The notes beneath the pieces were generated by a model. The model did no database searches. It was not told where the DNA came from and was given only the letters and a program-made list of their open reading frames with translations. Positions 9,630 to 38,875 of a DNA stretch of 64,000 bases are shown here, piece by piece; positions within the stretch are counted from its first letter, which is position 1, and the number at the start of each line of letters is the position of its first letter. Position numbers and translations under genes: made by a program. Source of the DNA: an uncultured Pseudomonadota bacterium (GTDB taxonomy: Bacteria; Pseudomonadota; Alphaproteobacteria; RF32; CAG-239); assembly GCA_902761535.1 (NCBI GenBank), contig CACWKS010000001.1, positions 26,177 to 90,176 of the forward strand, read 5' to 3'.

Positions 9630-9645
9630 ATTCTGCATAATTCGC

Positions 9646-10572: not shown

Positions 10573-10660
10573 CTTTTATAAACCCTTAAAAATATTTAAT
10601 TTCAAAAAAGGGCGGCGCAGTATATCAACACCGCCCTCATTCGCTCAAATAGCCTGAAAA

Positions 10661-12756: not shown

Positions 12757-12757
12757 A

Positions 12758-16175: not shown

Positions 16176-16178
16176 ATA

Positions 16179-18011
16179 ATGACAAGAGAACCCAAAGTTT
16201 CTGTTATCGTTCCGATTTACAAGGTTGAAAAATTTATACATAAAGCAATAGACTCTATTTTAAATCAAACTTTGAAAGATATTGAAATTATTTTAGTTGA
16301 TGATGGCTCGCCGGACAATTGCGGTAAAATCTGTGATGAATACGCCCAAAAAGATTCTCGCATCAAAGTAATACATCAAAAAAATGGCGGGCTAGGTAAT
16401 GCATACAACAACGGAATTAAAGCCGCATCAGGAGAATACATAGGTTTTGTTGAACCTGACGATTGGATCGAACCGGAAATGTATGAAAAATTATATGCTA
16501 ATACAAACCATAATAAGTGCGATATTGTAAAATGTTTTTACACTAGTATTTTAGAAAATGGCGAAAAAAGATTGGAAAAAAATTTTTACGATACAGACTG
16601 TAATAAATTTATTAGTGGTAGAGGAAATTGTCCTAACTTAATCGAAAAGCACGTTTCTCATTGGTCTGCAATATATAATAAATATTTTCTAAATAAAAAT
16701 AAAATTTTATTTAATGAAACGCCAGGAGCTGCATCTCAGGATTTTGGTTTTATATTAAAATGTTATGCTTATGCAGAAACTGTATATATTATTCCGTCTT
16801 CTTACATTAATTATAGACTTTTTTCTGGTAATCACAATATTGAACATTTAAATAAAAATATGCTACAAGAATGTATTCTTACTTGTAATTTTTTATTAAA
16901 TGATAAGAATATACCATCAATAGTTTGGGAAAATATATATAAGCGTATTGCTATGCGCCTAGTTACAGAAAAGACTTTTTCTTTTACTCAAATTTGTAAT
17001 CTAAAAAAGATATTAAGAAAAATAGAAAAACTACAGACATATAAATTTTTTTCTGAAAAGGATAAAAAAATAGTAACAAAATTTATTAGTAAAAAAATTA
17101 TTAATATAGTATATATTCTTCAAAATGAATATACTGTATACTTTTTAAATATCCCAGTATTTAAGAAAAAAATTGAACCTAATAAAACTAAAAAATATTT
17201 TCTGGGAATACCTTATAAAACCTGCAAACAAAAGAATAATAAAATCAAAAAATATTTTTTAGGCATAAAATATAAAACTAAAAATATCCCATCAACTGTT
17301 CAAGATATAGTAGTAGAAAATACCCGTTTGTTGCACATTATAAGTCAAGCCAATATTGTTCAGGCAACACATCAAAAAACTTTTTCTTCATATAAAAACA
17401 AATATAAAGATAGAGAAGTTGTTTTAGTGGCATCAGGACCAACAAACGCTAAATACAAGCCGATAAAAAATGCTGTTCATGTTGGGGTTAATAGAAGTTT
17501 TTTAAAAGACAATATTTTATTAGATTATCTTTTTATTCAAGATAAAAGAGCTTTTAATGATGGTTACAAAGATAAAATAATTAACTATAAAGGTAATAAT
17601 TGTAAAAAATTTTTTGGAATATCAAATGAAAAACACACAGACTGGATTATTCCCGAAAGTTGGAGTATTAAAGCTAATGCCGTTAGATACTATACAGATT
17701 TAGGATATAATAGCAAATTTGCATATGATTTGACATCTCAGCACCTTGGAGATTTTGCCTCTGTTGTTTTTGCCGCTTTGCAATTTATATTATGGACTTC
17801 CCCTAAGAAGATTTATCTGGTAGGTTGTGATTGTACAAATGATCCATATGCATATGACAAGACAAAAACAACAGATTTAATTCCTGATCGCAATATTGAA
17901 AATTTTAAAAAATTTAAGCAATTTAAAACGATGTACTATCCTGAAACTGAAATCATTTCTATCAATCCAATAGGTTTGAAAGGATTATTTACTGATGAAT
18001 ATACAGAATAA
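16179..18011 (+). CDS. GT2 glycosyltransferase fused to a C-terminal DUF115/GT42-like domain
   Basis: N-terminal VSVIVPIYKVE...VDDGSPD...FVEPDDW; C-terminal VVLVASGPT...GVNR...KKIYLVGCD. Confidence 0.8.
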   Translation: MTREPKVSVIVPIYKVEKFIHKAIDSILNQTLKDIEIILVDDGSPDNCGKICDEYAQKDSRIKVIHQKNGGLGNAYNNGIKAASGEYIGFVEPDDWIEPEMYEKLYANTNHNKCDIVKCFYTSILENGEKRLEKNFYDTDCNKFISGRGNCPNLIEKHVSHWSAIYNKYFLNKNKILFNETPGAASQDFGFILKCYAYAETVYIIPSSYINYRLFSGNHNIEHLNKNMLQECILTCNFLLNDKNIPSIVWENIYKRIAMRLVTEKTFSFTQICNLKKILRKIEKLQTYKFFSEKDKKIVTKFISKKIINIVYILQNEYTVYFLNIPVFKKKIEPNKTKKYFLGIPYKTCKQKNNKIKKYFLGIKYKTKNIPSTVQDIVVENTRLLHIISQANIVQATHQKTFSSYKNKYKDREVVLVASGPTNAKYKPIKNAVHVGVNRSFLKDNILLDYLFIQDKRAFNDGYKDKIINYKGNNCKKFFGISNEKHTDWIIPESWSIKANAVRYYTDLGYNSKFAYDLTSQHLGDFASVVFAALQFILWTSPKKIYLVGCDCTNDPYAYDKTKTTDLIPDRNIENFKKFKQFKTMYYPETEIISINPIGLKGLFTDEYTE

Positions 18012-19083
18012 AAAAAATGCATTATTAATAATGGCTGCAACCGGAAACTATTTATTTTCCGTAGGCAATGTACTCTTGGGCTTAAAAAAACATTCTCCGA
18101 ATATGTTTGACGATGTTGTTATCTATACCGACGAGACAGCTACAGAACAAGATAAACAAACTATTCAGAGAATTTATCCTGTTACATTTAAGATATACGA
18201 TTATCAAATTCCAAATAAAGTAGATCGTGAACGCTTAAAACATTATTCAAATATGTGTTATGCACGTTTTGAAGCGTTGGCACATTTAGATAAATATCAT
18301 AAAGTTTTTTGGTTTGATACAGATTTTTTGATTACCGGAGATATTTCAGGATTGCTTGAATATGGTAAAACCGGAATTTCCATGTCAATTGATTTGGATC
18401 CCTACCCTGAAGGGCATGGTGTTCATATGTTTTTTGTTAAGAATGTTCCAGGATATGATATGATGGCAGAAGCTTATGCTTCAGGTTTAATTATTTTCAC
18501 GGACAAATTAAAAGAGCCTTTGAAATTAAGAGAATACCTCTATAAACAATTGGATAAATATTCGTCATACATCAAATATGCCGAGCAGGGTATTTTGCAA
18601 CTAATGATTGAGGATTTTAAGCTTAAGGTGGATATGTTTCCCAAACTTATTTATCATGCTTTTCCTTTTGAGGACAAATCAAAGGCTCGTTTGATTCACC
18701 TATTAGGAAAATCAAAACCATGGCAATACTACACCGGTTCAGCCTATAAAGAATGGTATGAAAACCATAAAAAATGGATAGAACTTGGCGGAGATGAAGC
18801 CTATACTTTCAAAAAATTAATACAAAGTCACCCAGAGGCGTTTTATGGGGAAGATCGATACCAAAATATACTATTAATGAATATGTTATCTCGTAAATCA
18901 GAAAATTCATTGATAAACAATGTGGTAGAAATAATAAACTACAAACGTAATAAACGTAAACTTTTGAGATATAAGATCCTTTCAAATCTCACTTTCGGTA
19001 AAACTCGCGCTCACTATATACGCAAGAAAAAAGATCTGAAAGCTAAACTTAAAGCCGTAAAGCAATTTTTAAAAGGAAAATAA
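17995..19083 (+). CDS. GT8-like glycosyltransferase
   Basis: YARF, WFDTD (DxD), ASG, EQGILQ, IHLLGKSKPW. Confidence 0.8.
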   Translation: MNIQNKKNALLIMAATGNYLFSVGNVLLGLKKHSPNMFDDVVIYTDETATEQDKQTIQRIYPVTFKIYDYQIPNKVDRERLKHYSNMCYARFEALAHLDKYHKVFWFDTDFLITGDISGLLEYGKTGISMSIDLDPYPEGHGVHMFFVKNVPGYDMMAEAYASGLIIFTDKLKEPLKLREYLYKQLDKYSSYIKYAEQGILQLMIEDFKLKVDMFPKLIYHAFPFEDKSKARLIHLLGKSKPWQYYTGSAYKEWYENHKKWIELGGDEAYTFKKLIQSHPEAFYGEDRYQNILLMNMLSRKSENSLINNVVEIINYKRNKRKLLRYKILSNLTFGKTRAHYIRKKKDLKAKLKAVKQFLKGK

Positions 19084-20040
19084 ATGGCAAAATCCCTGAA
19101 AATTCTCGTTTGTTACCATAAACCGGCATATTTAATTAAAGATGATATTTTTATCCCAATTCATTTGGGCAGAATCTTGGCAACTCAAGCAAGTAAAGAT
19201 GGTAAAATGAGTCAAGAAGATTACCAATGGATGTTGGATAATATGATTGGCGATGACACCGGTGATAATATTTCTGAATTAAATCGCCTATTTAATGAAA
19301 TGAGTGCTGTTTATTGGGCTTGGAAAAACTATGATAAATTAGGGAATCCTGATTATATTGGCATAAATCATTATCGTCGTTTTTTCAATTTTCCTTGCCT
19401 AATATCTGACAACAAAATATGTTTTGAACATAACGAATTATATGAGGCCATTTCACAAGCGGACATCATTTGTGATAAATTCTTTAGTTATGACAAAGGT
19501 CTCTACCAGCATTACCTTGACCATAAAAATTGGGGATTTAATCAAATATTTTTCGATGAAGTTCTTAAAATTTTATCTTCAGATAAAAATTATGCCAAAT
19601 TTCAACACGCGTTTACAAATAATCAAACAGGCCCCTTATTTAACTGTTTTATCATGCCGAGAGAAGTCTTCTTTGATTATTGCAAATGGATTTTTCCTGT
19701 AATTTTTGAACTTTACCAAAGATTCAAAGATTTTCCGTATGAAGAAAAAGAAAAACGAAACATAGCTTGGATGAGCGAAAGATTAACTTGTGCTTATATA
19801 TACTGTTGTAGCGAAAAATATAAAATAAAACAAATACCATTGGCCAAAATTGATACCAAAATTATTTTTCAAAATAACATTATTCGCGATGTTGTTAATT
19901 ACAAAAAAAATAAACTTAACTATTTCAGATGCCGCTTGCTTGCTAATCTCACTTTCGGCAAAACTCGGGCTCATTATAAACGCAAGAAAAAAGAGTTAAA
20001 AATTAAACTAAAATACGTAAAACAATTTTTGAAAGACTAA
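19084..20040 (+). CDS. DUF4422 (GT111-like) glycosyltransferase, probable furanosyltransferase
   Basis: KILVCYHKP, PIHLGR, DDTGDNISELN, YWAWKN, YIGINHYRR, SERL. Confidence 0.85.
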   Translation: MAKSLKILVCYHKPAYLIKDDIFIPIHLGRILATQASKDGKMSQEDYQWMLDNMIGDDTGDNISELNRLFNEMSAVYWAWKNYDKLGNPDYIGINHYRRFFNFPCLISDNKICFEHNELYEAISQADIICDKFFSYDKGLYQHYLDHKNWGFNQIFFDEVLKILSSDKNYAKFQHAFTNNQTGPLFNCFIMPREVFFDYCKWIFPVIFELYQRFKDFPYEEKEKRNIAWMSERLTCAYIYCCSEKYKIKQIPLAKIDTKIIFQNNIIRDVVNYKKNKLNYFRCRLLANLTFGKTRAHYKRKKKELKIKLKYVKQFLKD

Positions 20041-20043
20041 CTT

Positions 20044-21177
20044 ATGTCCCGACAACTGCAAATCTTCAACAATTCCGCAAATCCGCCTTTACCGGCTTTT
20101 TCTAAAAATAATGTTCCGATTATTTTCAGTTCAAACAATAATTATGCAGCTTATTTGGCGGTATGCTTAAAATCTCTCATCGCCAATTCTTCTTCTCAAA
20201 ATAATTATGATATTTGGATATTAGAAGATAATATAAGCGATGAGAACAAGCAAAAAATTTCAGCAATGCAAACTTCTAATATATCCATTCGGTTTCTTAA
20301 TATAAATTTTTTATTATCTAACCTTGATCAATATAATTTCGCAATTCACGGACATTTTAGTATTGCCGCCTATTTCAGACTGTTTATTCCTCGGATATTT
20401 TATAAATACACTAAAGTATTATACCTTGATTGCGATATTGTTATTCAGAATGATATAGCTAAACTATATTACATCGATTTAGGTACAAATTATATTGCTG
20501 CCGTCAAGGATACTACCATACAATCACATTTATATAAATCACAACTTGATAAATCATCTTATCCTGACTATTTTACCCAGACGCTCGAAATGCAAAATCC
20601 TCAGGATTATTTTAATTCAGGTATAATGATTATGAACATTCAAAAACTTGCTGCTTTTGATATGGAAATCAAATGTTTAAAAGCTTTACAACGAATTACT
20701 CCTTTATATGTTGATCAATGCATCTTAAATAATGTACTGCAAGGTCATGTAAAATTTCTTGAAACCGCTTGGAATACCCAATGGCATTTGCCGATATTTG
20801 ATACTGACTTTCAAAAGCATTTGGACGATGACATTGCCGCTGACTACCTTTCAGCTTACACAAACCCGCATATCTTGCATTATACCTCAAATATCAAACC
20901 ATGGAATTATCCTCAACACCCGATGGCTGATCTTTGGTGGCATTATGCTCGTCAAACTCCTTTTTATGAAGAAATAATTTATAAAAATGCTTGCACAAAT
21001 ATCTCATCTAAAGAATTAATGCGTAATATTTTTTATTACCGAAAAAATCGGCTCAAATATTTCATATATCGCTTGCTTGCTATTTTTACCTTCGGTAAAA
21101 CTCGCACTCGCTACAAACGCAAGAAAAAAGAATTAAAAGTTAAGCTAAAATCAGTTAACCAATTTTTGAAAGGCTGA
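20044..21177 (+). CDS. GT8 glycosyltransferase
   Basis: YFRLFIP, YLDCD, YFNSG, DQCILN, ILHYTSNIKPW, WWHYARQTPFYE. Confidence 0.9.
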   Translation: MSRQLQIFNNSANPPLPAFSKNNVPIIFSSNNNYAAYLAVCLKSLIANSSSQNNYDIWILEDNISDENKQKISAMQTSNISIRFLNINFLLSNLDQYNFAIHGHFSIAAYFRLFIPRIFYKYTKVLYLDCDIVIQNDIAKLYYIDLGTNYIAAVKDTTIQSHLYKSQLDKSSYPDYFTQTLEMQNPQDYFNSGIMIMNIQKLAAFDMEIKCLKALQRITPLYVDQCILNNVLQGHVKFLETAWNTQWHLPIFDTDFQKHLDDDIAADYLSAYTNPHILHYTSNIKPWNYPQHPMADLWWHYARQTPFYEEIIYKNACTNISSKELMRNIFYYRKNRLKYFIYRLLAIFTFGKTRTRYKRKKKELKVKLKSVNQFLKG

Positions 21178-21180
21178 TGT

Positions 21181-22194
21181 ATGTCTCAAATTTCCATCAT
21201 CATACCGGTCTATAATGCCGAAAAATATTTGCCAAAATGTTTGGACAGTATTATCAATCAAACCTTCAAAGATATTGAAATCATTTGTGTCAATGATGGC
21301 TCAACTGATGATTCTCTTAACATTCTTAATGACTATACCGCTAAAGATTGTCGTATTAAAGTGTTTTCCCAAGCCAACGCCGGTCCGGCCAAAGCTCGAA
21401 ATATCGGCTTAACTAATTCGCAAAGTGAATTTATTATGTTTTGCGATGCTGACGACACCTATGAGCCGGATATGTGCAAAATTATGTTGGATACAATCAC
21501 CGCAAACCAAGCCGATTGTGCCATGTGCAATAGTAATATTATTTCACAAAATGATCGAACTTATAGCGATGTTTATTTTAATCCTCCGCTTAAGGGATTA
21601 ATAAATAAAAAGTTACATAAAATAAACGTTGTTTTATGGAACAAAATCTTCAGGAAATCCATCATTGATAAATATAATATCACTTTTCCCGATGGTTTTC
21701 TTCATGATGACGATTGTTTTTGGTATAAATACGCTCTTTGCTCTCGTAACATTTATATAACTACCGACAAACTCTATAACTACGTTATCCATTCTAACTC
21801 AATTATTGATAATTATAATAATCATAAACAGGCAAACTATTTCGACCGTTTTTATATTACTAAAAACCTTTTGGAATTCGCTAAAAAGCATCAATTTTTC
21901 ACTAAAAATCAAAAAGCCTTAAATACAATTTATCTTGGCGAGATTAACGATATTGCCGAATTTGCCGATTTATCCCTCATTGCTTCCGAAATTCAAGCTG
22001 TCAATGCTGAATATGGTTTCAATACTATCTTTACTCAAGATAATCACATTATTAGTTATAGCAGCCTATCCTCTATGCGGTTAAAATATTACCTATATCA
22101 AATCTTAGCCAGTCTCAGCTTTGGGCACCTTCACAAACGCCTTGATGATCGTCGTAAGAAATATAAAGAACTTCTTAAAAATATAAAATTTTAA
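21181..22194 (+). CDS. GT2 glycosyltransferase
   Basis: ISIIIPVYNAEKYL, VNDGSTD, ARNIGL, FCDADD, WNKIFR. Confidence 0.9.
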   Translation: MSQISIIIPVYNAEKYLPKCLDSIINQTFKDIEIICVNDGSTDDSLNILNDYTAKDCRIKVFSQANAGPAKARNIGLTNSQSEFIMFCDADDTYEPDMCKIMLDTITANQADCAMCNSNIISQNDRTYSDVYFNPPLKGLINKKLHKINVVLWNKIFRKSIIDKYNITFPDGFLHDDDCFWYKYALCSRNIYITTDKLYNYVIHSNSIIDNYNNHKQANYFDRFYITKNLLEFAKKHQFFTKNQKALNTIYLGEINDIAEFADLSLIASEIQAVNAEYGFNTIFTQDNHIISYSSLSSMRLKYYLYQILASLSFGHLHKRLDDRRKKYKELLKNIKF

Positions 22195-22487: not shown

Positions 22488-22563
<76 letters not shown>

Positions 22564-28139: not shown

Positions 28140-30152
28140 ATGACCGATGATGATGAAGAAAAAGATGAAAAAGAAAAAATAAACGATGAACAACCTGTGC
28201 AAAATACAAATGCAGATAGCATTTTGCTAAAGGAACGCTTTGAAATAAATCTCACTCACCCTATGCCTGAATTTAACTGCAATGGTGCATCGGCATTCGA
28301 AGCAATTGATAAAACGAATCCGAGCAGAGCTTTATTTGCTTTAATTTGCTTGGATGAACTCCCTCGTTTATCTTATCTTCCTTATATGAAATCAATTGAT
28401 TCCCCCTTTATACTTAAATTAGTTGAATATGGACATGTTGAATTCAATAATTTCGAAACCATCGCCTTAATTTATAATCGCCCTAAAGGACCGAGAGCCG
28501 ATAAATTTCTTGAAATATCCGACCCAATGAGTGGAGAAATTTTCCGCTCATTAACCTTATCACTTTTATCGGCTTGTGACGTTCTCAAGACTTTCGGGCT
28601 CACTCATCGAGCTATTCGCCTGGATAATGTATATTTTACCGATTCCTCTCGTAAAGAACTCATGCTCGGTGACTGTCTTGCATCATTTCCTTCTTACCAC
28701 CAACCCTTAATTTATGAAACCATCGAAAATTCCTTATGCCCGCCGCAATCTCGCGGCAACGGTATAATCGATCATGACATATATGCATGCGGCGTTGTCC
28801 TCTTAGAATTAGTACTAAATCACGACATAAAATCCGAACTTTCACCAGGAGAAATGGTCCGCCAAAAATTAAAAAATTCATCTTTTAATTTTTTATCCAA
28901 TAATGAAAAAATCCCTGCACGTATCAGTACGGTATTGCACTGTCTTCTGGATGATAACAGCGAAAAAAGAAACGATTATAATACAATTCTCAACTATTTT
29001 GACGGCAAAAGTGCTAATTTGATGCCAGAAACCAATGATCGTTCCAATAAAGCACTGGTAATCAATGGTGAAAAATGCTATACACGTAAAAGTGCCGCAT
29101 TATCAATATTAAACAATCCAGATTTTGGACTTGAAGTCATTCAAAGCGGCAAAATACTTGAATGGGTTAAAAGCGGATTAGAAAACGAAAAACTTCACGC
29201 CAAACTGCAAAACGTTATAACTTCGGAAAAAGACAATCCCGATAAATCAAACCTTTTAGCAAAAATCTGCATATATCTTGACAGCAACCTGCCTCTCAAA
29301 TGCGACGATACTTATCTGTTTCCGGGTGGCATAGCTAAAACTATTTTTTATAACAAAAAAAATAATATACCCTTAACTTATTTGCAAAATTTAATTTCTT
29401 CAGATATCATCAAATTATGGTACCAAGAACAACCTTATTTGCGCGCCCCCAGCAACGCCAGTGAATTCGGCATGTATCTTATGCGCAATGACTATGGCTA
29501 TGGTTTTGAACGCATTATGTACGACTTTGACGAAGATCTTCCCTGCATAAGTCCTTTATTAGGTAATTTTTTCGTTAACAATACTTCGCGTTTGCTTGCT
29601 GCACTTAACAATAATCACTCTAATTTTTCGACTACCCCTTTTGATAAAAGTATTATCGCTTATCTGCGTTGCAAAATGGGTAAAAAGATTGATGGGATTA
29701 TTGTTGACATTAATGCTAATCAGGATGCTATCAAAATCGGAGCAATAATCCGCCTGTATGCCACCATCCAAAACAAACAAGGCCCTTCCCAGTTGATCAA
29801 CCTTACTCAATGGTTGGCAAATGCGGCAAAGTCGGTAATTCAAAGCTACCATAACATAAAATATCAAAAATATCTTGAACAAGAAATAATTAAAATATCC
29901 AAAAGCGGCAAAATAATGGATTTGGTAGATATTCTTGAAAATGAAGAGGCGCGCACTCGTGATCGCAATGATTTTGCCGAAGCCCTCAAAACAGTTAATT
30001 TCCTGATTGCCGAAAAAAATAAAATTCTCAGCGGCGATTCCAAAATTGATGATGAAGCTCGCGAATTAGCACTGCGTTTCTCTTCCATTCTCTCTGTTTT
30101 AACCATGCTCAGCACTTTTGTGTTCAGCCTAATCTACTGGATGATAAAATAA
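28140..30152 (+). CDS. Ser/Thr protein kinase-like protein (probable pseudokinase), C-terminal TM
   Basis: THRAIRLDNVYF (catalytic-loop-like), LGDCL, DIYACGVVLLEL; hydrophobic C-terminus. Confidence 0.7.
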   Translation: MTDDDEEKDEKEKINDEQPVQNTNADSILLKERFEINLTHPMPEFNCNGASAFEAIDKTNPSRALFALICLDELPRLSYLPYMKSIDSPFILKLVEYGHVEFNNFETIALIYNRPKGPRADKFLEISDPMSGEIFRSLTLSLLSACDVLKTFGLTHRAIRLDNVYFTDSSRKELMLGDCLASFPSYHQPLIYETIENSLCPPQSRGNGIIDHDIYACGVVLLELVLNHDIKSELSPGEMVRQKLKNSSFNFLSNNEKIPARISTVLHCLLDDNSEKRNDYNTILNYFDGKSANLMPETNDRSNKALVINGEKCYTRKSAALSILNNPDFGLEVIQSGKILEWVKSGLENEKLHAKLQNVITSEKDNPDKSNLLAKICIYLDSNLPLKCDDTYLFPGGIAKTIFYNKKNNIPLTYLQNLISSDIIKLWYQEQPYLRAPSNASEFGMYLMRNDYGYGFERIMYDFDEDLPCISPLLGNFFVNNTSRLLAALNNNHSNFSTTPFDKSIIAYLRCKMGKKIDGIIVDINANQDAIKIGAIIRLYATIQNKQGPSQLINLTQWLANAAKSVIQSYHNIKYQKYLEQEIIKISKSGKIMDLVDILENEEARTRDRNDFAEALKTVNFLIAEKNKILSGDSKIDDEARELALRFSSILSVLTMLSTFVFSLIYWMIK

Positions 30153-30631
30153 TGAAAGCTCCTCAACCTCTTAATTCCAAAAATAACAAAGTTGGCACAT
30201 CTAAAATCAACTCTTTTCAAAAATTTTTGATTTCTTTAGGGTTAATGATTGTGGCATTTACTGTTCTACCAGTTGTTGTAGTGCTGTTTATCGGTTTTCT
30301 CCCCACTCTGACAGCCGTAGTTACTGATACTAAAAATATTAACAAAATAACCACTATAGGCTGCCTTAACATGTCCGGTCTGATTGTCTGTCTCCATCAC
30401 ATTTTTATACAACTGGCCTCCGGTGCACCTTTTGCAATTCGTAACAATATAACCAATATTATAATCATGCTGGGTGCTGCCGCTATAGGTGCAATGCTTT
30501 ACTATGTTTTGCCTGATTTGTTTGCCTTTATATTTAAAAATTCTGCCCAGCATCGCCTCAAAACCATCAATCACCGTCTTAATAAATATGCTGAAAACTG
30601 GAGTAATATTTTACCCGAAGAACACCAATAG
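30152..30631 (+). CDS. Hypothetical membrane protein
   Basis: Several hydrophobic helices; start overlaps the kinase-like gene's stop. Confidence 0.75.
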   Translation: MKAPQPLNSKNNKVGTSKINSFQKFLISLGLMIVAFTVLPVVVVLFIGFLPTLTAVVTDTKNINKITTIGCLNMSGLIVCLHHIFIQLASGAPFAIRNNITNIIIMLGAAAIGAMLYYVLPDLFAFIFKNSAQHRLKTINHRLNKYAENWSNILPEEHQ

Positions 30632-30632: not shown

Positions 30633-31610
30633 CTATTTCAACCCTTGCAACACTTTTTGCAATTGTTGCAAATCATCAGGTAATTCGCTCTCAAAATACA
30701 TTTTCTCTCCGCTTATCGGATGAACAAAACCCAAGCTCTGAGCATGCAAAGCCTGACGCGGAAACTCATTCAAATATTTTTTTACATCATCGGCAATTTT
30801 CTTATCATTTATTTTTTTAGACTTCGTATAAACTTTATCGCCGAGAAGATTATTCCCTTTTGAAGCTAAATGCACTCTTATCTGATGAGTGCGTCCTGTC
30901 TCCAAATTACATTTTACTTTAGCTGCCAAACCGCCGTAATTTTCAACAACCTGATAATGTGTAACGGCTCTTTTACCGTTACGCTGTACGATTGCCATTT
31001 TTTTTCTGTCATACGGACTGCGCCCGATATCACCTTCAATCACTCCGTTCAAAGGAGCCGGCACTCCGTAACAAAAAGCATAATAAGTTCGGTCAATCGA
31101 ATGTTCGGCAAATTGTTCACACAACAACCGATGGGCGTTATCATTTTTTGCCACCACCAACAATCCTGAAGTCTCCTTATCAATCCGATGAACAATCCCC
31201 GGACGCTTAACTCCTCCTATACCGGACAAATCATGACACCAAAACAACAAAGCATTCACCAAAGTCCCTTTACTCACTCCTGCCGCAGGGTGCACCACCA
31301 TTCCTGCCGGTTTATTAACCACAATAATTGCCTCATCTTGATAAACAATCTCCAGCGGAATATCCTCCGGCTGAGGTAAAGCATCTTCCGCTTCCGGCAA
31401 AGTTATTGCAAAAGATTCGCCTTCTTTCACCTTATAAGCATTATCGGCAATCGTCACATCATCACAAACCACATTTCCGCCTTCAATCAGCTTTTGCAGA
31501 CGTGAACGCGACATATCGGCAAGACATTCGCTCAAAAACTTATCAATTCTCACTCCCTTAAAATCTTTGTTAACTATCGGAGTGATATAAACATCATCAA
31601 TCTGTGTCAT
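30633..31610 (-). CDS. rluD: 23S rRNA pseudouridine synthase RluD
   Basis: S4 domain; NKPAGMVVHP, RPGIVHRIDKETSG, LETGRTHQIRVH, RQALHA. Confidence 0.93.
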   Translation of the reverse strand: MTQIDDVYITPIVNKDFKGVRIDKFLSECLADMSRSRLQKLIEGGNVVCDDVTIADNAYKVKEGESFAITLPEAEDALPQPEDIPLEIVYQDEAIIVVNKPAGMVVHPAAGVSKGTLVNALLFWCHDLSGIGGVKRPGIVHRIDKETSGLLVVAKNDNAHRLLCEQFAEHSIDRTYYAFCYGVPAPLNGVIEGDIGRSPYDRKKMAIVQRNGKRAVTHYQVVENYGGLAAKVKCNLETGRTHQIRVHLASKGNNLLGDKVYTKSKKINDKKIADDVKKYLNEFPRQALHAQSLGFVHPISGEKMYFESELPDDLQQLQKVLQGLK

Positions 31611-31690: not shown

Positions 31691-31975
31691 ATGAACAAAC
31701 TCAGAATTGTCAAAGCAATCGTATTTTTACTGACTTTTCTAATTATTTTCGGCATGATACTGGCCGGTTATACCATTTACAAAAAGGTTCAACACCCTTC
31801 TTCACAACAAAATTTAACTATAAGCTTAAATCAACCGAACGGCAGCCGTATCAGTGATATAAAAACTTCTAATGATGCATTATACATCTTAATCACCGGA
31901 GGCCGCCAACCCGACCGCATAGTTACGGTCCGTTCATCTGACTTATCTGTCGGTGCCACCATCAATTTACAATAA
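31691..31975 (+). CDS. Small hypothetical single-TM protein
   Basis: GAGG RBS; N-terminal TM helix plus short beta-rich domain; divergent from rluD. Confidence 0.75.
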   Translation: MNKLRIVKAIVFLLTFLIIFGMILAGYTIYKKVQHPSSQQNLTISLNQPNGSRISDIKTSNDALYILITGGRQPDRIVTVRSSDLSVGATINLQ

Positions 31976-31986
31976 GGAAACCTGCC

Positions 31987-32940
31987 ATGTCTGATAACAA
32001 AGATTTTGACGCACTTCTCGACGAATTCATCAAAAAACAACTTGAGGATTCTGAAGACACTTTGGCTGAACTTGACGATACCGCATCTAAAAAAAGATTA
32101 TCTCATCATCAAGATGAAAATCCTTTTGATGATAACGACCAAACTGATCTCGATGAAGAAACTGATGATGACGATGAAAATGACGAAAGCAATCAAGATG
32201 ATGAAGATGACTTTGATTTATCTTCCATCCCCGATATTGATCCTGATGAAGCCAAACTTCAAGAAGAAGAAAAACGCCTGTTTACGGCTTATAAGGAGCT
32301 CATCAAATCGGCAAGCAATTGTGCTCGCGAACATCAAGTCGAAGTTCCCGAATTTTATTTTTCGGCAGCTGAGCTTCTGCCGCGTTTTCGCCCATATCGC
32401 ACAGACAACCTTAAAGGTGACATAGCAACTTGTTGGGATATTCTTATTGCAACCGAAGCCGAAAAACTCGCCGGACTGCCGGTTAATGCCAGTGACGAAC
32501 AAATTTTGGATTTTGCCGAAAAAATTTCTGCTCCTAATTTGCAACTTTCCCTGATTTCTTATGTCGAAACTTTAATTGAAATTGATGCTTGCGAAACCGC
32601 CTATAACTTACGCAAAGTAAAATATCAAAAACACAAAATCGAAAAAGAACTTTATGAAGAAAAACAACGTCTTAATGAAAAAAAACGCCTTTATGTTCAG
32701 GCCATAAAAGATCACCGCTTTCCGGTTGATGCCGACCGCTTGGTCACCAATTTTTTCAAAACAGCCGCCAAAGATCCGGCTAATGCCGAAAAAATATTGG
32801 AAAACAATCCGGCAACCTTTGCTCCGATTCAGGTTGATAAAATTCCCAATCGCTTTTTCGGATTAATCAAAGCCGGTCCCGAAGACGGCAAAATAGTCAA
32901 TAAAAAACTCGGAAAATTTTTAATTAAATTGAAAAAATAA
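31987..32940 (+). CDS. Hypothetical protein with acidic N-terminus and possible C-terminal BID-like domain
   Basis: 317-aa ORF with AAGGA RBS; Asp/Glu tract, coiled coil, basic C-terminus. Confidence 0.75.
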   Translation: MSDNKDFDALLDEFIKKQLEDSEDTLAELDDTASKKRLSHHQDENPFDDNDQTDLDEETDDDDENDESNQDDEDDFDLSSIPDIDPDEAKLQEEEKRLFTAYKELIKSASNCAREHQVEVPEFYFSAAELLPRFRPYRTDNLKGDIATCWDILIATEAEKLAGLPVNASDEQILDFAEKISAPNLQLSLISYVETLIEIDACETAYNLRKVKYQKHKIEKELYEEKQRLNEKKRLYVQAIKDHRFPVDADRLVTNFFKTAAKDPANAEKILENNPATFAPIQVDKIPNRFFGLIKAGPEDGKIVNKKLGKFLIKLKK

Positions 32941-32958
32941 TTTATTGACAAAAAGTAC

Positions 32959-32987
32959 TGGACAAAAAACAAAATATCTGCTACAAT
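32959..32987 (+). promoter_or_regulatory. Putative sigma70 promoter (extended -10)
   Basis: TGGACA-N17-TACAAT with TG just before the -10 box; GGGAGG RBS before ATG 33018. Confidence 0.55.
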
Positions 32988-33017
32988 AGCTGTAATTAGA
33001 GATTTTAGAGGGAGGAC

Positions 33018-34667
33018 ATGATGAGTACAACAGATGAGATTAGACGCAATATTGAAGAACAACGCCAAGAATATATTACTCGAGAAGAACGCCCAACACA
33101 AAGAAAGGATTATATTGCTCCTACCATAACGATTAGGACAGAAACATCCAATGATGATGCAAATAAGTTACCTCCTACACCTCTTGAAATCAACGAGAAC
33201 AATCCCGGTGGTTTGACTATTCATGAACATACACCGGAAAACAAGCAAACGAATAATGCTCTCCCCGGCAAAGATAATACTGCCACAATTAAAAAAGGCG
33301 ATGAACCGCTTGATCTCGGACATTATGATGATGATAAAATTAAAATGTCTGATGGCGACATTATCGACTATATGATGAAAGAATGGATACAAGCCGGAAT
33401 AGCTTGGTGTCTTGACAAGACCAGCGGACTTGGCGGTGCAATCCTTTATAATGCCAGCCGTACAGTCGGTAAAGGTACCAATAAGGTTGTGCGAAGAACT
33501 AAAGAATTTGCCAAATCAGCAGCATCCTCTGTCCGCGACTCTATAGATCCGTTAAATGATAATATGGCGGATATGCTTCAAGATCACCTTAATACTGTTA
33601 ATGAATTGTCAGCCGCACCTCAGCCGCTCAACAATTTTATACGTAACGTTGCTACCGGATCAATCCGACTGGAAGGCAACACCTATAAATATCTTGATAA
33701 AGAAAAACAGAAATGGATTGAATCCAAATATACTTTAGATGATATACCTAAGCAACAATATGAATTTGTCATGGCTACCGCCAAAGAAACCATCATTGCT
33801 GATGCCTATCAATACGCTTATCAGGAACTTCCTGAAAATGAAAAAGAAGGTTATGATTTCAAAAAATTTAAAGATACTTATAGCAAAGTCTATGACTTGT
33901 CGATTAAACAATCTCAAAATAAAACTCTCGGCATAGAATTTCCTCAAGGATCAGGACAATACCTTCCTGATAAAGAACAACAAATCCTGAATAATAACCA
34001 ACCTATCAAACGGGCAATTGCTGATGCTTTCAATAATTTTAATAAACCCGACGGCAGGTGTGAGCAAATAACTCAACTTTCCCTTGAAAAGGCCAAACTT
34101 AACTCAGAAGCTAAGTTATTTGCTGAATATTATGCACAATATGCCATTAATAACGATAATATCAAAAATCCCGGCCAACGTGCTTCTACCCGTAAATTAT
34201 CTAAAAAGCAACTTATCAACCTGAAAGAAGAATCTCGTGCTTATGCCACCAAGATGTTTTGGCAATTCCAACAGGCTCGTATTGATGGTAAAGAAGTTCC
34301 GTCAAATAAAAAATTGATTGAACTGGCTAAAAACCAATGTGAAAACGCCAAAACAACATTGACGGAAAACGTTATCTATAATCAATACTATAATCCTGAA
34401 AATGTTAAAAAAGCAGACCGAGTCAATCAAAGTCCCGAAATGACTTTACCCGAAACATTTGTCGGCTATTATAAAATAATTGATAACAGAGCAAGTGAAC
34501 TGGATGTTTTAGCTAAAGAAGAGACAGCTCTTGGAAGAAGTTTAGAGGGTATAGATAAACAAAGAAGTAGAATTGGCAGGTTAAGAGTAACTGTCAACCA
34601 AGCCACAAGTGCACAACAAGGCACATTGCCGATACCCCACCCCAACCAAGGGCACGGATCTCGTTAA
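33018..34667 (+). CDS. Hypothetical protein (549 aa, no recognised domain)
   Basis: Long ORF with a strong RBS and promoter-like element. Confidence 0.8.
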   Translation: MMSTTDEIRRNIEEQRQEYITREERPTQRKDYIAPTITIRTETSNDDANKLPPTPLEINENNPGGLTIHEHTPENKQTNNALPGKDNTATIKKGDEPLDLGHYDDDKIKMSDGDIIDYMMKEWIQAGIAWCLDKTSGLGGAILYNASRTVGKGTNKVVRRTKEFAKSAASSVRDSIDPLNDNMADMLQDHLNTVNELSAAPQPLNNFIRNVATGSIRLEGNTYKYLDKEKQKWIESKYTLDDIPKQQYEFVMATAKETIIADAYQYAYQELPENEKEGYDFKKFKDTYSKVYDLSIKQSQNKTLGIEFPQGSGQYLPDKEQQILNNNQPIKRAIADAFNNFNKPDGRCEQITQLSLEKAKLNSEAKLFAEYYAQYAINNDNIKNPGQRASTRKLSKKQLINLKEESRAYATKMFWQFQQARIDGKEVPSNKKLIELAKNQCENAKTTLTENVIYNQYYNPENVKKADRVNQSPEMTLPETFVGYYKIIDNRASELDVLAKEETALGRSLEGIDKQRSRIGRLRVTVNQATSAQQGTLPIPHPNQGHGSR

Positions 34668-34676
34668 GGAACACTA

Positions 34677-35147
34677 ATGAGAAAAATTTTACGCCTTATT
34701 CGAGCTTTAATAATTGCTTGTGGATGGACATTTTTGTTTGTTTATCTTTTTCAAGCTTTATTCGTTTTAATTTGGAACTTTGATTTCACTTCCGATACTT
34801 CGTGGGCGATTATGCGTGAATATTGGAATCACGGCGGCATTATCAAATCAACGCTTGATATAGCATTATTTGCTGCACTGGCCTTATTACCGATATTATG
34901 GTATATCGGATTACGCAAAGCCCTTAAAGTTGACTATTTGCAGCTTATTATCTCTCCTTTTAACAGATTTCGCCGCATAGCGGCTAACAAAACTTCTACT
35001 GAACGCATTGTTATCCGTAACATCAAATCCGGAGAACAACGTGCCGACGAAATCAAAGACGAATTAAGCTCGCTTAAACCTGAAAAAACTCAAAGTGCTC
35101 AGTTTATTCGCACTGAAATAAGAGAAAAAAGATCTGATGATAAATAA
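34677..35147 (+). CDS. Hypothetical membrane protein
   Basis: Two TM helices flanking a WNFD...W...W..GG loop; AAGGA RBS. Confidence 0.78.
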   Translation: MRKILRLIRALIIACGWTFLFVYLFQALFVLIWNFDFTSDTSWAIMREYWNHGGIIKSTLDIALFAALALLPILWYIGLRKALKVDYLQLIISPFNRFRRIAANKTSTERIVIRNIKSGEQRADEIKDELSSLKPEKTQSAQFIRTEIREKRSDDK

Positions 35148-35207
35148 AATAAGTTTTTTATTAACCAATTCCGGTTACCATAACAAAAGATATTTTGGAG
35201 TCAACAA

Positions 35208-36440
35208 TTGAGGGCTGCTTTTGTGTTATTACGAATAATCGTTGTCGGAATTTTATGGAGTGTGTTGTTCATCGAAGGTATTCGTGTTATTTTGATGACC
35301 AATTGGCACTTTGATATTTTTCGCTTAACTCATTGGCAACATGCTTGGAATTTGTGGCGTTCCGGTTGGGTTATTGACGAAACCAAAGAATGGGCCTTTA
35401 TTTTGATTGTTTTAGCAGCTGTTCCCGTATGGTTAACCATTTGGGCAGCTTTAAGCATAATCAATTGGGAAACTTTATTCCAAAATCTCTGGAATTCTAT
35501 TCGCTCAATTCTTAAAAATATTATGAACAGCAATTTTAGCAAAGTATTGCCCAAAACTAATTCCGTCAAAGCCGCTCCGACCAAAAAAACCAATGTTACT
35601 CGCAGCAAAAATCCCAGTTATTCATTAGAAGAAAACACTCCCAATCTCTCTCCCGAACGACGTGCCCAGTTGACCGGTGTTCCCTATAAACCCCATGCTC
35701 CCGGCGCCAAAAACAAACCGACTCCCAAGCCGGCACCGAAAGAATTTTCTCACTCATTATTTGAGCTTAGCAATGATGATGATACTTTTGATTTCGACTT
35801 ATTTGAAGAAAGCACCCCCGAAACCAAACCGTCTTTAACTCCTGAGCCGATGGCCCCCGCACCTCGCAACAATACTGAAAAATCATCATCACCCAGAAAA
35901 CGCAACGATACTGCCGGAGAAAACAAAAATAAAAATTATCACTCTAATTCAACCTTTGAAGTATTGAAACAAAAAGGTTATGAGATTATTTCAGGCATCA
36001 CTCTTAATGATGTATACATCGACTTTGTCGGTGTTTCGCAAAATTCAATCTGCCTATGCCTTAACGACAAAGAAATCGGCGATTGGTTGGCTGATGAAGA
36101 ACGTTTCAATGATGAAGAGCCGCTTTGGTTTTCCGAGAGTTCACACCGCATATCTCCGGTTCGTAAAATTGCTATTGCCCAGACCGCTCTTAATGATAAA
36201 TTAACCTCTGCTGAATTAAAATTTAAGGTCAATGCTTACGTTATCGAACAGATCGGCAACATCATCAATGCTGAAGATATGTTTGATATATGGAAAGATT
36301 TGCATATAAATGTAACTCGCATTGACCGCGGCACTCCTAAAGAAATACCTTTGTTCGCCAAAAAGTTGGAAGATGCCGATGGTCATGTTGACAAAGCTCT
36401 TTTTGACAAGTTAAAAAAACTTTTGCGCAATAATGATTAA
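35208..36440 (+). CDS. Membrane protein with Pro-rich linker and C-terminal NERD/PD-(D/E)XK-like domain
   Basis: N-terminus paralogous to the 34677 ORF; C-terminal LKQKGYEII...IDFVGVS...W...SPVRK pattern; TTG start after GGAG. Confidence 0.65.
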   Translation: MRAAFVLLRIIVVGILWSVLFIEGIRVILMTNWHFDIFRLTHWQHAWNLWRSGWVIDETKEWAFILIVLAAVPVWLTIWAALSIINWETLFQNLWNSIRSILKNIMNSNFSKVLPKTNSVKAAPTKKTNVTRSKNPSYSLEENTPNLSPERRAQLTGVPYKPHAPGAKNKPTPKPAPKEFSHSLFELSNDDDTFDFDLFEESTPETKPSLTPEPMAPAPRNNTEKSSSPRKRNDTAGENKNKNYHSNSTFEVLKQKGYEIISGITLNDVYIDFVGVSQNSICLCLNDKEIGDWLADEERFNDEEPLWFSESSHRISPVRKIAIAQTALNDKLTSAELKFKVNAYVIEQIGNIINAEDMFDIWKDLHINVTRIDRGTPKEIPLFAKKLEDADGHVDKALFDKLKKLLRNND

Positions 36441-36451
36441 GTGAGGATATT

Positions 36452-38680
36452 ATGGCTGCTAAAGAAGGTGAGGAATGGAAAGAATATAACAGTGCGGTAC
36501 GCTGGATGTGTATAACCGCCATAATTGTCGTTTCTCTTACGATTATACTTTTCATAACGGCATTACCTTTGGCTTATTTGGTGGGAAACGGCATATCTAA
36601 GGAAACTTTTGCCGACATATCAAAATTCTTTTCACTTATCATTCATCGCAACGGCTTTTTATACAATCGTTATTGGATTTGGGCCAAACAACTGTTTAAC
36701 TATCATGGTCCGTTTTCTCTGAGCTTATGGATTCCGACCTTACCGTTTTTAACTTTGCCGATAGGCTTAATCGCCGGAATGGTCCTAAACCCTTACAAAT
36801 TTCAATCCAACGTTCATGGTTCTGCTCGTCTTGCTACCGAAAATGATATTCGCAAAATGCCGTTACTCGGATTTGACGGTTTCTGCCAAGTTGTCGGCAA
36901 ATTCAACGGCAAAATGTTATTACTGAAAGAAACTTTATCAACCTTATGTTGCGCTCCTCCGGGTACCGGTAAAACTGCCGGAGTGGTTATTCCGACTATT
37001 TTTCACTCGCCCAAACTGAGTATTATCGTCAACGACCCTAAACCGGAATTATGTTATTCCACTTCCGGTGCTCGTGCCAAAGTCGGCCCCGTTTTCATTA
37101 TCAATTGGGGTATGGAAGATGAGCCCGAAAAAGGCATTTATTACCCGTCATGGAATCCGCTTTCCCCGACTGCCATTCCCGCCCCCGGACCGGCTCGTGA
37201 TATGTATGTCGATTCTATGTGTAAGGTTTTGGTCGAAGATCCTAAAGGTAATGCTGATCCTCACTGGTCAAACACCGGTCGTGCCGCCCTTACCGGTTTT
37301 ATCAATTTTATCGTTTGCAAATGTGAAAAAGCTCGCGCCAATGACTATTTTATCGGTCGTATTTATGAAGGCAAACTTGATGAAGCTGATAAAAAGACAC
37401 TTGAAAATCACTATATGGAGATGAACGATCCGCAAGCCGCCCGCGCCTTGCAAAACTTACGTGAAGGATCACTCAATATTGACAATTATGTTCCGATTGG
37501 TTCATGGGCCTTACTCCCTGAACGTTGGATTGGGCACGAAGCTTGTATTGCCATGATTTTGGAATGGATTACCGAAGCTCAAATCAAGCAATCCCAAGAC
37601 ATCAAACGGCGCATGGACGAAGGTGATCAAATGGCTGCTATGGCTGACCCCATGCGCGACCTTTTGGAAGAAGCTATTGAAGAAGCACGTAAATTCGGCT
37701 ATTCTCAACGTGCTATCATCGAATTGAGCCAACTCAGCTCCATGCCGGATAAAGAACGCGGTTCGGTTATGTCAACCGCATTTGCCGGAATCGGTATATT
37801 CAAAAACGCTGCCGTAGTTGCACGCACAAGTTTTTCTGATTTAACCTTTAAGGATTTGCGTGGCATGAAAGATCCTGTTACCGGTGAAATGAAACCTATC
37901 TCGGTTTACCTGTCGGTAAACCAAGTTGATGCTCGTGCCCTAAGCGTTATTTCCGGCATTTTCATCGACTTAATGTCATCATACCTTATCGCCAATCCGC
38001 CCAACTTTGTTAATTCTACCGATGGTAAAATGGGACCTTATTCTGCATTGTTTGTCTTGGACGAGTTCCCGACCATGCCTAAACTGAAAGCCGTTATTGA
38101 CGGACCGGCAGTCGGACGTGGTCAAAAGGTATCATATTTATTAATCGGTCAAGATTTAGGACAAATCTCCGGTAAATACGGCAAAGATGATTTGGAAACG
38201 GTTATTTCTACCACCGCTTGCAAAGTAATTCTTTCGCAAAACAACGAGCAAACCGCCCAGCGTTTCTCTAAAATGATTGGCAACAAAACCGTGCAAACCA
38301 CTTCATTTTCCAAAAACGAGGGTTTATCTTTTTCCAAAGGATCTAATCCTTTTGCTAAAAACGTCAGCTATCAATTACAAGGTGTTTCGGCCGTATCTGC
38401 AACTCAACTGCTGAGTTTACCGATGTTAAAACAAGTTGTATTGATGCAAGGATCTATCGATCGCCCGATTATGGCCGATTCGCCTCGTTGGTATCTTGAT
38501 TCCAAAATGAAAGCTTTGGCTAAATTGCCTCCGGCACCTAATGTCCCTGATTGGATTGTTGCTCAACGTGATGATACAAACGACGATATGCTCGCCAAAC
38601 TGGGGATAGATTACGATCCTAATGCGGACGAAAGTCAATACGAAGAATTTGAAAATGAGGAAAATGAACAAGCACAATAA
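36452..38680 (+). CDS. virD4: Type IV secretion coupling protein VirD4/TraG family
   Basis: Two N-terminal TMs, HGSARLA, Walker A APPGTGKTAGVVIP, NDPKPEL, WNPL, Walker B LFVLDEFP, GRGQ...QDLGQI...YG. Confidence 0.92.
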   Translation: MAAKEGEEWKEYNSAVRWMCITAIIVVSLTIILFITALPLAYLVGNGISKETFADISKFFSLIIHRNGFLYNRYWIWAKQLFNYHGPFSLSLWIPTLPFLTLPIGLIAGMVLNPYKFQSNVHGSARLATENDIRKMPLLGFDGFCQVVGKFNGKMLLLKETLSTLCCAPPGTGKTAGVVIPTIFHSPKLSIIVNDPKPELCYSTSGARAKVGPVFIINWGMEDEPEKGIYYPSWNPLSPTAIPAPGPARDMYVDSMCKVLVEDPKGNADPHWSNTGRAALTGFINFIVCKCEKARANDYFIGRIYEGKLDEADKKTLENHYMEMNDPQAARALQNLREGSLNIDNYVPIGSWALLPERWIGHEACIAMILEWITEAQIKQSQDIKRRMDEGDQMAAMADPMRDLLEEAIEEARKFGYSQRAIIELSQLSSMPDKERGSVMSTAFAGIGIFKNAAVVARTSFSDLTFKDLRGMKDPVTGEMKPISVYLSVNQVDARALSVISGIFIDLMSSYLIANPPNFVNSTDGKMGPYSALFVLDEFPTMPKLKAVIDGPAVGRGQKVSYLLIGQDLGQISGKYGKDDLETVISTTACKVILSQNNEQTAQRFSKMIGNKTVQTTSFSKNEGLSFSKGSNPFAKNVSYQLQGVSAVSATQLLSLPMLKQVVLMQGSIDRPIMADSPRWYLDSKMKALAKLPPAPNVPDWIVAQRDDTNDDMLAKLGIDYDPNADESQYEEFENEENEQAQ

Positions 38681-38683
38681 TTT

Positions 38684-38875
38684 TTATTGTGCTTGATTTT
38701 TATCGTCTTTGTTAACTTCAGATAACTCGGCTAAATCATCCTCATCAATTTCCTGTGCTTCAAAGGAATATTTTTCATTAAACCAATTTCCCAAATCTAT
38801 ATCTGCACATCGCTTGGAACAAAAGGGACGATATTTCATATCCTCAAATTCTTTTTTACAAATTGGACATTTCAT
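38684..38875 (-). CDS. yacG: DNA gyrase inhibitor YacG
   Basis: CPIC...[16 protein letters not shown]. Confidence 0.93.

Follow-up and report, generated by a model that had tools for sequence, protein, structure and literature searches.

A conserved virD4 locus in an order of uncultured gut Alphaproteobacteria, a candidate receptor module of a scattered type IV secretion system

Described coupling proteins and the virD4 locus

The rvh type IV secretion system (T4SS) of Rickettsia is, in the sections of PMC2653234 on which we draw, a chromosomal and vertically inherited P-type system whose genes lie as an archipelago of islets. VirB8 is duplicated there, the VirB6-like genes are multiplied and enlarged, no relaxase partner of the system was found, and virD4 is arrayed with virB8-virB11 in islet C. 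Type IV coupling proteins (T4CPs) work with auxiliary subunits, such as DotL with DotM/N/Y/Z and Cag-beta with CagF, and the label D4Aux requires a shown physical interaction with the T4CP (PMC12857230, in the part that treats these subunits). Here we describe a virD4 locus from an uncultured alphaproteobacterium. The analysed stretch, called the window, comprises 64,000 nucleotides (nt; G000:C1:26177-90176) of the source genome G000, which has 1.44 Mb in 25 contigs, is 96% complete and has a guanine-plus-cytosine (GC) content of ~38%. Between rluD and yacG, six open reading frames (ORFs) on the + strand encode proteins of 94, 317, 549, 156, 410 and 742 amino acids (aa), which we name g1, g2, g3, g4, g5 and VirD4.

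With moderate confidence we read g2-g3-g4-g5-virD4 as a coupling module, the receptor for the substrates of a chromosomal T4SS that is scattered like rvh, probably secretes protein and has new auxiliary subunits. Like rvh, as far as the sections of PMC2653234 describe it, the system is scattered, chromosomal and vertically inherited in a small host-associated alphaproteobacterial genome, with two VirB8 genes and, by sub-threshold matches, possibly several VirB6-like genes. Measured against the same sections it also differs. virD4 lies apart from virB8-virB11, ~180 kb off in the genomes G004 and G019, and is accompanied by four private genes. The VirB11 gene on contig C9 is followed by an unrelated ORF of 662 aa and not by virD4. 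Whereas virB4, virB8 and virB9 are duplicated in rvh, only VirB8 is present twice here, and one VirB4 and one VirB9 were found. Moreover, VirB10 is giant (1811 aa, with beta-flower repeats) and three VirB2 genes stand in tandem. By the features given in the rvh paper, the system is akin to rvh and not a member of it.

The Legionella Dot/Icm coupling complex (DotL with DotM, DotN, DotY, DotZ and IcmS/W), as a portion of PMC12857230 presents it, is similar in that a T4CP stands beside dedicated partners, at least one of them membrane-anchored with a cytoplasmic domain (DotM there, whose domain binds substrates; g5, by prediction, here). Dot/Icm secretes proteins without a relaxase; here none of four relaxase families was found and the cargo would likewise be protein. 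Unlike the Dot/Icm auxiliaries, g2-g5 matched none of the Pfam or NCBIfam families at E<=0.01, g2 and g5 match no solved chain, and the cytoplasmic domain of g5 is predicted to be alpha/beta and nuclease-like. VirD4 is of type IVA (VirB/D4-like) with a short acidic C-tail, in contrast to the long docking tail of DotL. Cag-beta of Helicobacter pylori with its chaperone CagF, in the same portion of PMC12857230, pairs a T4CP with a private partner for cargo, as we propose for VirD4. The Erythrobacter aureus megaplasmid NZ_CP031358.1, an example of the canonical contiguous VirB/D4 operons of alphaproteobacterial megaplasmids, carries the same P-type set (VirB4, B8, B9, B10, B11 and D4), but as a single row in which VirD4 comes immediately behind VirB11 with nothing annotated between, whereas here VirD4 is separate, paired with g5 and chromosomal.

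VirD4, its neighbour g5 and the channel genes of the genome

VirD4 is an intact T4CP. It scored above the curated cut-offs of PF02534 (193.1 bits, cut-off 20.1), PF12696 (TraG-D_C, 77.7 bits) and PF10412 (TrwB_AAD_bind, 66.0 bits). The best NCBIfam rows were VirD4 and TraG models, all far under their equivalog cut-offs, and VirD4 is therefore a divergent member of the family. Walker A (G171-T-G-K174-T175) and Walker B (D537-E538) were invariant in 12 orthologues, and the mean column identity over 12 species of two families was 87%. A simple Kyte-Doolittle scan, which is not a topology predictor, placed hydrophobic N-terminal segments at residues 13-49 and 90-112. No other T4CP was found in G000, and a phmmer search of the PDB sequences with VirD4 gave no match at E<=0.001. 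The ORF calls, the PF02534 score and the Walker motifs bear out the preliminary description of the locus, which had six co-oriented genes between rluD and yacG ending in an intact virD4.

In the plasmid collection, the closest T4CP was that of NZ_CP031358.1, with 33% identity over 97% of the VirD4 query, and no plasmid T4CP reached 34%. Of the 4986 plasmid records with a VirD4 match, 4111 were typed as conjugative. Since the closest plasmid relative sits directly after VirB11 in a contiguous row, the separation of virD4 from the virB row is a derived state.

A second chromosomal VirD4 paralogue of ~780 aa, ~30% identical to VirD4, was observed among housekeeping genes in most members of the genus (e.g. 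G004:C1:412000-431999, positions 6101-11439). An uncharacterised 601-aa gene and a pentapeptide-repeat gene stand before it, and mgsA comes after it. The paralogue was not found in G000 (96% complete), which also lacks mgsA and the gene for the pentapeptide-repeat protein.

The conservation of the locus was followed through the genus, the order and beyond. All 10 same-genus genomes that were fetched carry orthologues of all six genes, and in unchanged order; hence the six ORFs are real genes and not chance ORFs. Read as far as the fetched stretch or contig allowed, 10/10 of these loci kept the order kinase-like gene, orf159, rluD, g1-g5, VirD4, yacG, rng, maf, dksA, and G025, from another family of the order, kept it up to the contig end. 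Within the genus, identity was 81-92% for VirD4, 60-80% for rluD, 46-66% for rng, 49-66% for g5, 46-63% for g2 and 33-57% for g4, and merely 25-35% over part of the protein for g3. Nonsynonymous divergence (dN) to the nearest species was 0.059 for VirD4, 0.129 for rluD, 0.22 for g5, 0.31 for g2 and 0.77 for g3; dN alone is quoted, as synonymous sites were saturated even against the closest species (pS 0.65-0.79). The housekeeping genes rluD and rng on either side are thus far less conserved than VirD4.

In 151 genomes sampled from the order (20 genera), the g5 profile matched 149, and VirD4 (E<=1e-150) matched the very same 149. G013 and G088, each 100% complete, have neither. When 39 genome pairs from all 20 genera were compared by eye, the g5 and VirD4 matches were on the same strand and separated by 17-45 bp in every case (39/39). 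Outside the order, a VirD4 of 50-65% identity was found in six genomes from other families of the Alphaproteobacteria. In all five of those with upstream DNA (G080, G043, G048, G063 and G056), a g5 homologue immediately precedes it, and G080 also keeps the kinase-like gene, rluD, g1 and g2 upstream. VirD4 homologues of <=43% identity had no g5 alongside. A scan with one genome per species detected relatives of g5 in 379 stretches. By their record titles, the best 80 of these 379 come from metagenome-assembled genomes of uncultured Alphaproteobacteria, 'Proteobacteria bacterium CAG:495' and 'Candidatus Scatocola faecipullorum' included, which were recovered from gut samples of humans, primates, ruminants, rabbits, mice and chickens.

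We conclude from these results that VirD4 and g5 are kept or lost together, side by side, and that the module is vertically inherited and core to the whole order of uncultured gut/rumen Alphaproteobacteria. The proposal of a chromosomally fixed locus in a gut alphaproteobacterium, with neighbours that co-occur with virD4, agrees with this distribution, with the synteny in the genus and with the record titles of the relatives as uncultured gut/rumen Alphaproteobacteria. VirD4 and g5 are coupled at the gene level, by co-occurrence and adjacency; the two proteins may also associate physically.

One of the six genes was assigned to the module by the preliminary description and had to be taken out of it. 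g1 scored 22.3 bits against DUF6476 (PF20082), just below the cut-off of 24. In a class-wide search, a DUF6476 gene was directly beside rluD in 12/12 loci (10 from other families, plus G009 and G000 itself), and g1 is accordingly most likely the ordinary alphaproteobacterial neighbour of rluD. With g1 as backbone, the lineage-specific block consists of g2-g5 and virD4.

A genome-wide inventory of VirB families showed that channel genes exist away from virD4 in the same genome. vir genes are found at six places in G000: on C1 (VirD4), C3, C9, C10, C14 and C24. The row on C9 consists of an uncharacterised 715-aa gene, two VirB8 genes, VirB9 with a SPOR domain, an 1100-aa beta-flower protein, the 1811-aa VirB10, VirB11 and the 662-aa gene without a family. 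The C-terminal TrbI domain of VirB10 scored 123.6 bits and VirB11 matched TIGR02788 at E 1.6e-40. VirB9 was found in one copy, in this cluster, in a search that was not genome-wide and in a genome that is 96% complete. The single VirB4 match of the genome is on the 2.5-kb contig C24 (TIGR00929, E 1.8e-110). Three tandem VirB2/TrbC pilin-like genes are located on C14 (8375-9503), two above the Pfam cut-off and one below. Four TrbL/VirB6-like matches in frames of 446-1042 aa, three in tandem on C3 and one on C10, scored 20-25 bits against a cut-off of 25.9. The expectation of virB genes elsewhere in the genome, in a Rickettsia-like scatter, is therefore borne out by VirB2 (three genes), VirB4, VirB8 (two genes), VirB9, VirB10 and VirB11.

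VirB10 was detected in 60/61 genomes sampled from the order and in 16/16 genera, always in a frame of 1383-2332 aa. On single contigs, the distance between VirB10 and VirD4 was ~177 kb in G004 and ~181 kb in G019. The giant VirB10 of the source genome (G000:C9:8000-27999, positions 5741-14456) has ~ten beta-flower repeats (PF21785, PF21784, DUF3659) ahead of its TrbI domain. The beta-flower protein of 1100 aa before it is paralogous, and the SPOR domain of VirB9 is C-terminal. CagY of H. pylori is a giant repeat-bearing VirB10, and the Cag genes are in one island. In outline, VirB10 is likewise enlarged by long N-terminal repeats here, which are beta-flower domains. We also considered the 662-aa ORF after VirB11 as a decayed VirD4 and rejected this, as it has no similarity to VirD4 and no family. 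On C3 (68000-85550, positions 5993-16417) the VirB6-like trio (445, 968 and 1037 aa) is preceded by an uncharacterised 572-aa gene, and a divergent double-helix-turn-helix (Xre-type) regulator of 322 aa is also found upstream.

Partner proteins and the explanations weighed

For the protein g5, an AlphaFold2 (AF2) model built with 12 orthologues had a mean predicted local distance difference test (pLDDT) score of 62. It predicts a helical hairpin of two transmembrane segments (two-TM) at residues 1-107, a disordered linker at 109-246 with an acidic FDFDLF motif, and an alpha/beta domain at 247-410. In a full-library search with VIA-align, this C-terminal domain matched Can2 (8bao, Z 8.7), VC1899 (1xmx, Z 8.4), Can2 (7bdv, Z 8.4) and NucS (2vld, Z 8.2), followed by AF1548, Cdn1 and XisH. 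The top 8 rows (Z 8.7-7.3) are PD-(D/E)xK-type chains or matches to the same core, with 95-119 residues aligned at a root-mean-square deviation of 3.0-4.5. g5 has the alpha-beta-beta-beta-alpha-beta core of the PD-(D/E)xK/NERD superfamily, at modest scores and with a domain pLDDT of 45-91. Foldseek ranked the same families first (E 0.03-0.1). Language-model look-alikes were NERD clusters at 0.91, and 25/30 matches were with that family set. No Pfam family matched g5 even at E<=10, nuclease and NERD models included, and its profile found no solved chain above chance among the PDB sequences. All 864 clusters of g5 relatives are unnamed and without a Pfam domain.

The core fold of g5 (247-390) matches that of the PD-(D/E)xK domains (NERD PF08378, the Can2/Card1 nuclease and MOBC). 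D272 and D287-K288-E289 occupy the nuclease-motif positions and are invariant within the order, whereas in g5 homologues of other families and in fused forms the classical D...(D/E)xK positions are replaced. Unlike the known domains, g5 has no hidden Markov model match and no catalytic D...(D/E)xK that is conserved across the family; a long acidic loop after strand 3 (WLADEE..FN.E.PLWFSE....SPV) is conserved instead, together with a later INAEDM...W motif. Run against 1.84 billion proteins, a profile of the C-domain matched 449 representatives at E<=0.001, most of them of g5-like length. Nine of the 150 listed representatives, picked for unusual length or domain position, were scanned for domains. 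P0179 and P0190 (~1500 aa) contain TPR, the g5-type domain, Roc-COR and TIR, and in P0255, P0260, P0263 and P0270 the g5-type domain is N-terminal to an AAA/AAA_lid_6 ATPase. The remaining three of the nine had no Pfam family. In all eight representatives that were aligned (P0156 was left out) the acidic loop was nearly identical. Since this loop is conserved while the classical catalytic positions vary, the g5 C-domain is probably a widespread unnamed module whose conserved function is not classical nuclease catalysis. A complex prediction of full-length VirD4 with g5 240-410 gave 0.00 against a mark of 0.32; controls were not run, and the value carries no weight either way.

g4 and g5 share homologous N-termini. 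The two-TM modules align by BLASTP at E 1e-07 with 27% identity over 74 aa, in line with the description of two paralogous membrane proteins, and the two TM segments of g4 are backed by hydropathy. In NCBIfam, g4 had a weak, sub-threshold match to PgaD (TIGR03940, 18.3 bits, cut-off 31.45). Neither g4 nor the N-terminal part of g5 had a meaningful Pfam match at E<=10. In G080 and G043, a full-length g5 paralogue (377 and 371 aa) occupies the position of g4. Because of this replacement and the shared two-TM module, g4 is probably a truncated g5 paralogue.

g2 is made of an acidic disordered N-terminal third, an all-helical domain (90-317) that includes one 60-residue helix, and a lysine-rich C-terminal tail. 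Its AF2 model had a mean pLDDT of 80.6, with values >90 across most of residues 90-317, and G025 and G080 carry the gene as well. g2 matched none of the Pfam or NCBIfam families at E<=0.01, its profile found no PDB sequence above chance, and at E<=10 Pfam returned only Prok-TraM and PDCD9, at chance level. In the fold searches the best Foldseek match had E 0.26, the best VIA matches were talin rod bundles with Z<=9.5, below the noise mark of the tool for helical proteins, and the Atlas look-alike search gave no usable match. The suggestion that g2 is BID-like was not upheld. Pfam gave no family at E<=0.01, in a copy whose BID model was not confirmed to be present, and generic helical bundles (Z<=9.5) were all that the structural searches listed, which leaves room for families not listed; the last 30 residues of the C-tail have a net charge of +7. 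In G005 (C5:13000-32000), g2 matches were observed at two places ~3 kb apart (tblastn 5752-6570 and ORF 8655-9503), which points to a local duplication, or an insertion, in the g1-g3 interval of that species.

The 549-aa g3 is an orphan, as had been described. It has no family in Pfam or NCBIfam and nothing meaningful in Pfam even at E<=10. Its 10 orthologues are 15-26% identical to it, and conservation is confined to one block of ~45 residues (about 104-145), with only G113, D114, I116 and G140 invariant. We take g2 and g3 to be the nearest candidates for an adaptor or a cargo.

For the favoured reading we propose the following mechanism. VirD4 would sit in the inner membrane with g5, and probably g4, held by the two-TM module of each. 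The cytoplasmic domain of g5, tethered there, may bind or gate substrates in the manner of a D4Aux-like auxiliary subunit, and the scattered VirB channel, encoded at no fewer than five other sites of the 1.44-Mb genome, would receive the substrates from the VirD4 module. Since no relaxase was found, the cargo would most likely be protein. The conserved g2, by its helical domain and lysine-rich C-tail, and the hypervariable g3 would come nearest to an adaptor or cargo. Whether the target cell is host epithelium, a protist or another bacterium cannot be told from sequence. We searched for the XVIPCD effector domain (PF20410) and found it in 0/13 genus genomes; the controls were likewise without a match, so that this zero carries no information. 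A bolder version, which we regard as tentative and on the unlikely side, has the g5 domain as a ligand- or nucleic-acid-sensing switch gating the nucleoside triphosphatase motor. The whole order would then carry an essential-grade, signal-gated coupling complex that possibly moves nucleoprotein.

Several results weigh against the coupling module as we propose it. All VirB6 matches are sub-threshold in Pfam. VirB3 (PF05101) was not found at E<=0.01, and VirB1, VirB5 and VirB7 were not searched for; VirB3 is a short protein and its expected site upstream of VirB4 falls at the edge of the 2.5-kb contig. The complete genomes G013 and G088 have the giant VirB10 but neither VirD4 nor g5, and thus either the channel can persist without the module or the module can work apart from the channel. 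The complete genome G129 has VirD4 and g5 and no VirB10 match. On the supporting side, the relaxase families PF03432, PF08751, PF03389 and PF07514 gave 0 matches in G000 (96% complete), in a search that did not include MOBC, MOBT and MOBV. Neither g2 nor g3 has a Pfam or NCBIfam family at E<=0.01, hence nothing marks either as an effector. Finally, the nuclease-like fold of g5 fits a role with nucleic acid as well as protein binding.

This last point leads to the view that VirD4 and g5 export, take up or mobilise DNA, with the g5 domain as a non-canonical MOBC-like nickase that replaces an HUH relaxase. T4CPs are ancestrally DNA translocases, the g5 C-domain resembles PD-(D/E)xK nucleases (Can2 8bao, VC1899 1xmx, NucS 2vld) with NERD look-alikes in the Atlas, and MOBC relaxases are placed within the PD-(D/E)xK superfamily in a section of PMC12857230. 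We nevertheless consider such a DNA-handling system unlikely. The invariance of the classical positions (D272 and D287-K288-E289) does not extend past the order, with other residues in their place in other families and architectures, and the conserved residues are found in the acidic loop after strand 3 instead. No nuclease or NERD model of Pfam recognises g5 even at E<=10, the fold scores (Z <9) are in the range that the tool calls common, and the TPR-Roc-COR-TIR and AAA+ proteins to which the same domain is fused are not DNA-transfer contexts.

VirD4 and g5 could also be a repurposed, stand-alone FtsK/HerA-like membrane motor that no longer serves the VirB channel and has an envelope job of its own. 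VirD4 is never beside channel genes in the order, its conservation is far above that of the housekeeping genes rluD and rng, and the second VirD4 paralogue in most genus members is also among housekeeping genes; G013 and G088 with VirB10 and without VirD4/g5, and G129 with the reverse, point the same way. Such a motor is decidedly unlikely in our view, as the same genomes retain a near-complete VirB set, VirD4 retains the full T4CP architecture and its closest plasmid relative (33% identity) comes directly after VirB11 in a canonical VirB4-VirB11-VirD4 row. The vir genes of Rickettsia are scattered too, yet are taken as one system in the sections of PMC2653234 cited above. Hardly credible is the idea of strain-specific debris left behind by an integrated conjugative element or a plasmid. 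VirD4-family genes are usually on mobile elements, as the 4111 conjugative records among the 4986 matched plasmids illustrate, but the locus and its order are kept in 10/10 same-genus genomes and the module in 149/151 genomes of the order. This block has no integrase, no relaxase of the four families, no flanking repeat and no adjacent tRNA, its composition is host-like, and its identity to any plasmid T4CP is <34%.

If the coupling-module reading is true, a whole order carries a complete and strongly conserved T4SS with a receptor module unlike any described. These bacteria, which by their record titles are common in gut metagenomes of humans, primates, ruminants and poultry, would then come into question as partners that interact directly, cell to cell, with the host, protists or other microbes despite genomes of ~1.5 Mb. 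We found no description of a T4SS in them, no NERD-like T4CP partner and no cultured, studied member in the literature, supplements not covered. The VirD4-g5 pair, ancient, always adjacent and jointly lost, offers a clean natural case for the study of a T4CP and its auxiliary. What the g5 domain does matters beyond secretion too, since it turns up again in immune-like TIR/ROCO and AAA+ proteins.

Layout of the locus and neighbouring features

The features of the locus are collected in Table 1. The intergenic gaps across g1-g2-g3-g4-g5-virD4 are 11, 77, 9, 60 and 11 bp. For g5, the Atlas record begins at residue 6 of the 410-aa form, and the orthologue alignments favour the longer, TTG-start form (35208-35223). 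virD4 and yacG are convergent, with their stop codons 3 bp apart, and the hairpin over both scores as a terminator on both strands. rluD is syntenic in 10/10 same-genus loci and in G025 and G080. Beyond yacG follow rng, maf, dksA and then a Lon-like protease gene.

Table 1. Features of the virD4 locus, with positions in the window
Feature	Position	Strand	Basis
rluD, 23S rRNA pseudouridine synthase; left backbone flank, divergent from g1	30633..31610	-	TIGR00005 298.4 bits and PF00849
g1, 94 aa, single-TM, DUF6476-like; backbone	31691..31975	+	PF20082 22.3 bits
g2, 317 aa; candidate adaptor or substrate	31987..32940	+	AF2 model, charge scan
Promoter-like site within the 77-bp g2-g3 gap	32959..32987	+	consensus scan only: 10/12 matches, extended TG
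g3, 549 aa, fast-evolving; candidate substrate or variable partner	33018..34667	+	orthologue identity, dN
g4, 156 aa, two-TM module and short charged tail	34677..35147	+	BLASTP against g5, hydropathy
g5, 410 aa; candidate auxiliary subunit of VirD4	35208..36440	+	AF2 model, fold searches, co-occurrence
virD4, 742 aa, intact type IV coupling protein	36452..38680	+	PF02534 193.1 bits, Walker A/B
Palindromic hairpin over both stop codons; terminator-like, common to convergent virD4/yacG	38669..38695	.	12-pair stem, inverted repeat
yacG, right backbone flank	38684..38875	-	PF03884 69.1 bits

The surroundings were searched for traces of a mobile element. Among the flanking ORFs scanned with the profile libraries there was no integrase, relaxase or VirB family, and the repeat search found no flanking repeats past chance-level matches of 16-22 nt. 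The sole tRNA of the window is a tRNA-Ala at 22488-22563, and none is near the block. In 1-kb windows from 31 to 39 kb the GC content was 0.37-0.46, against 0.36-0.41 for the contigs. The locus had been described as free of relaxase, virB, integrase and flanking repeats, with a 3-bp gap between virD4 and yacG and a host-like composition, and each of these points was recovered in the scans, the coordinates (38680/38684) and the GC values.

Beside rluD, at 28140-30631 of the window, stand a gene for a protein of 670 aa, whose match to protein kinases is weak (23.7 bits, below the cut-off), and a 159-aa gene without a family. Both keep their place beside rluD in the genus and in G025, and the kinase-like gene is also found in G080 at 27% identity. 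Further upstream, the region 16179-22194 has a low GC content (26-33% compared with ~38% elsewhere) and contains five genes of glycosyltransferase type (GT2, GT8, DUF4422). This is probably a variable gene cluster for surface polysaccharides, and it ends near the tRNA-Ala.

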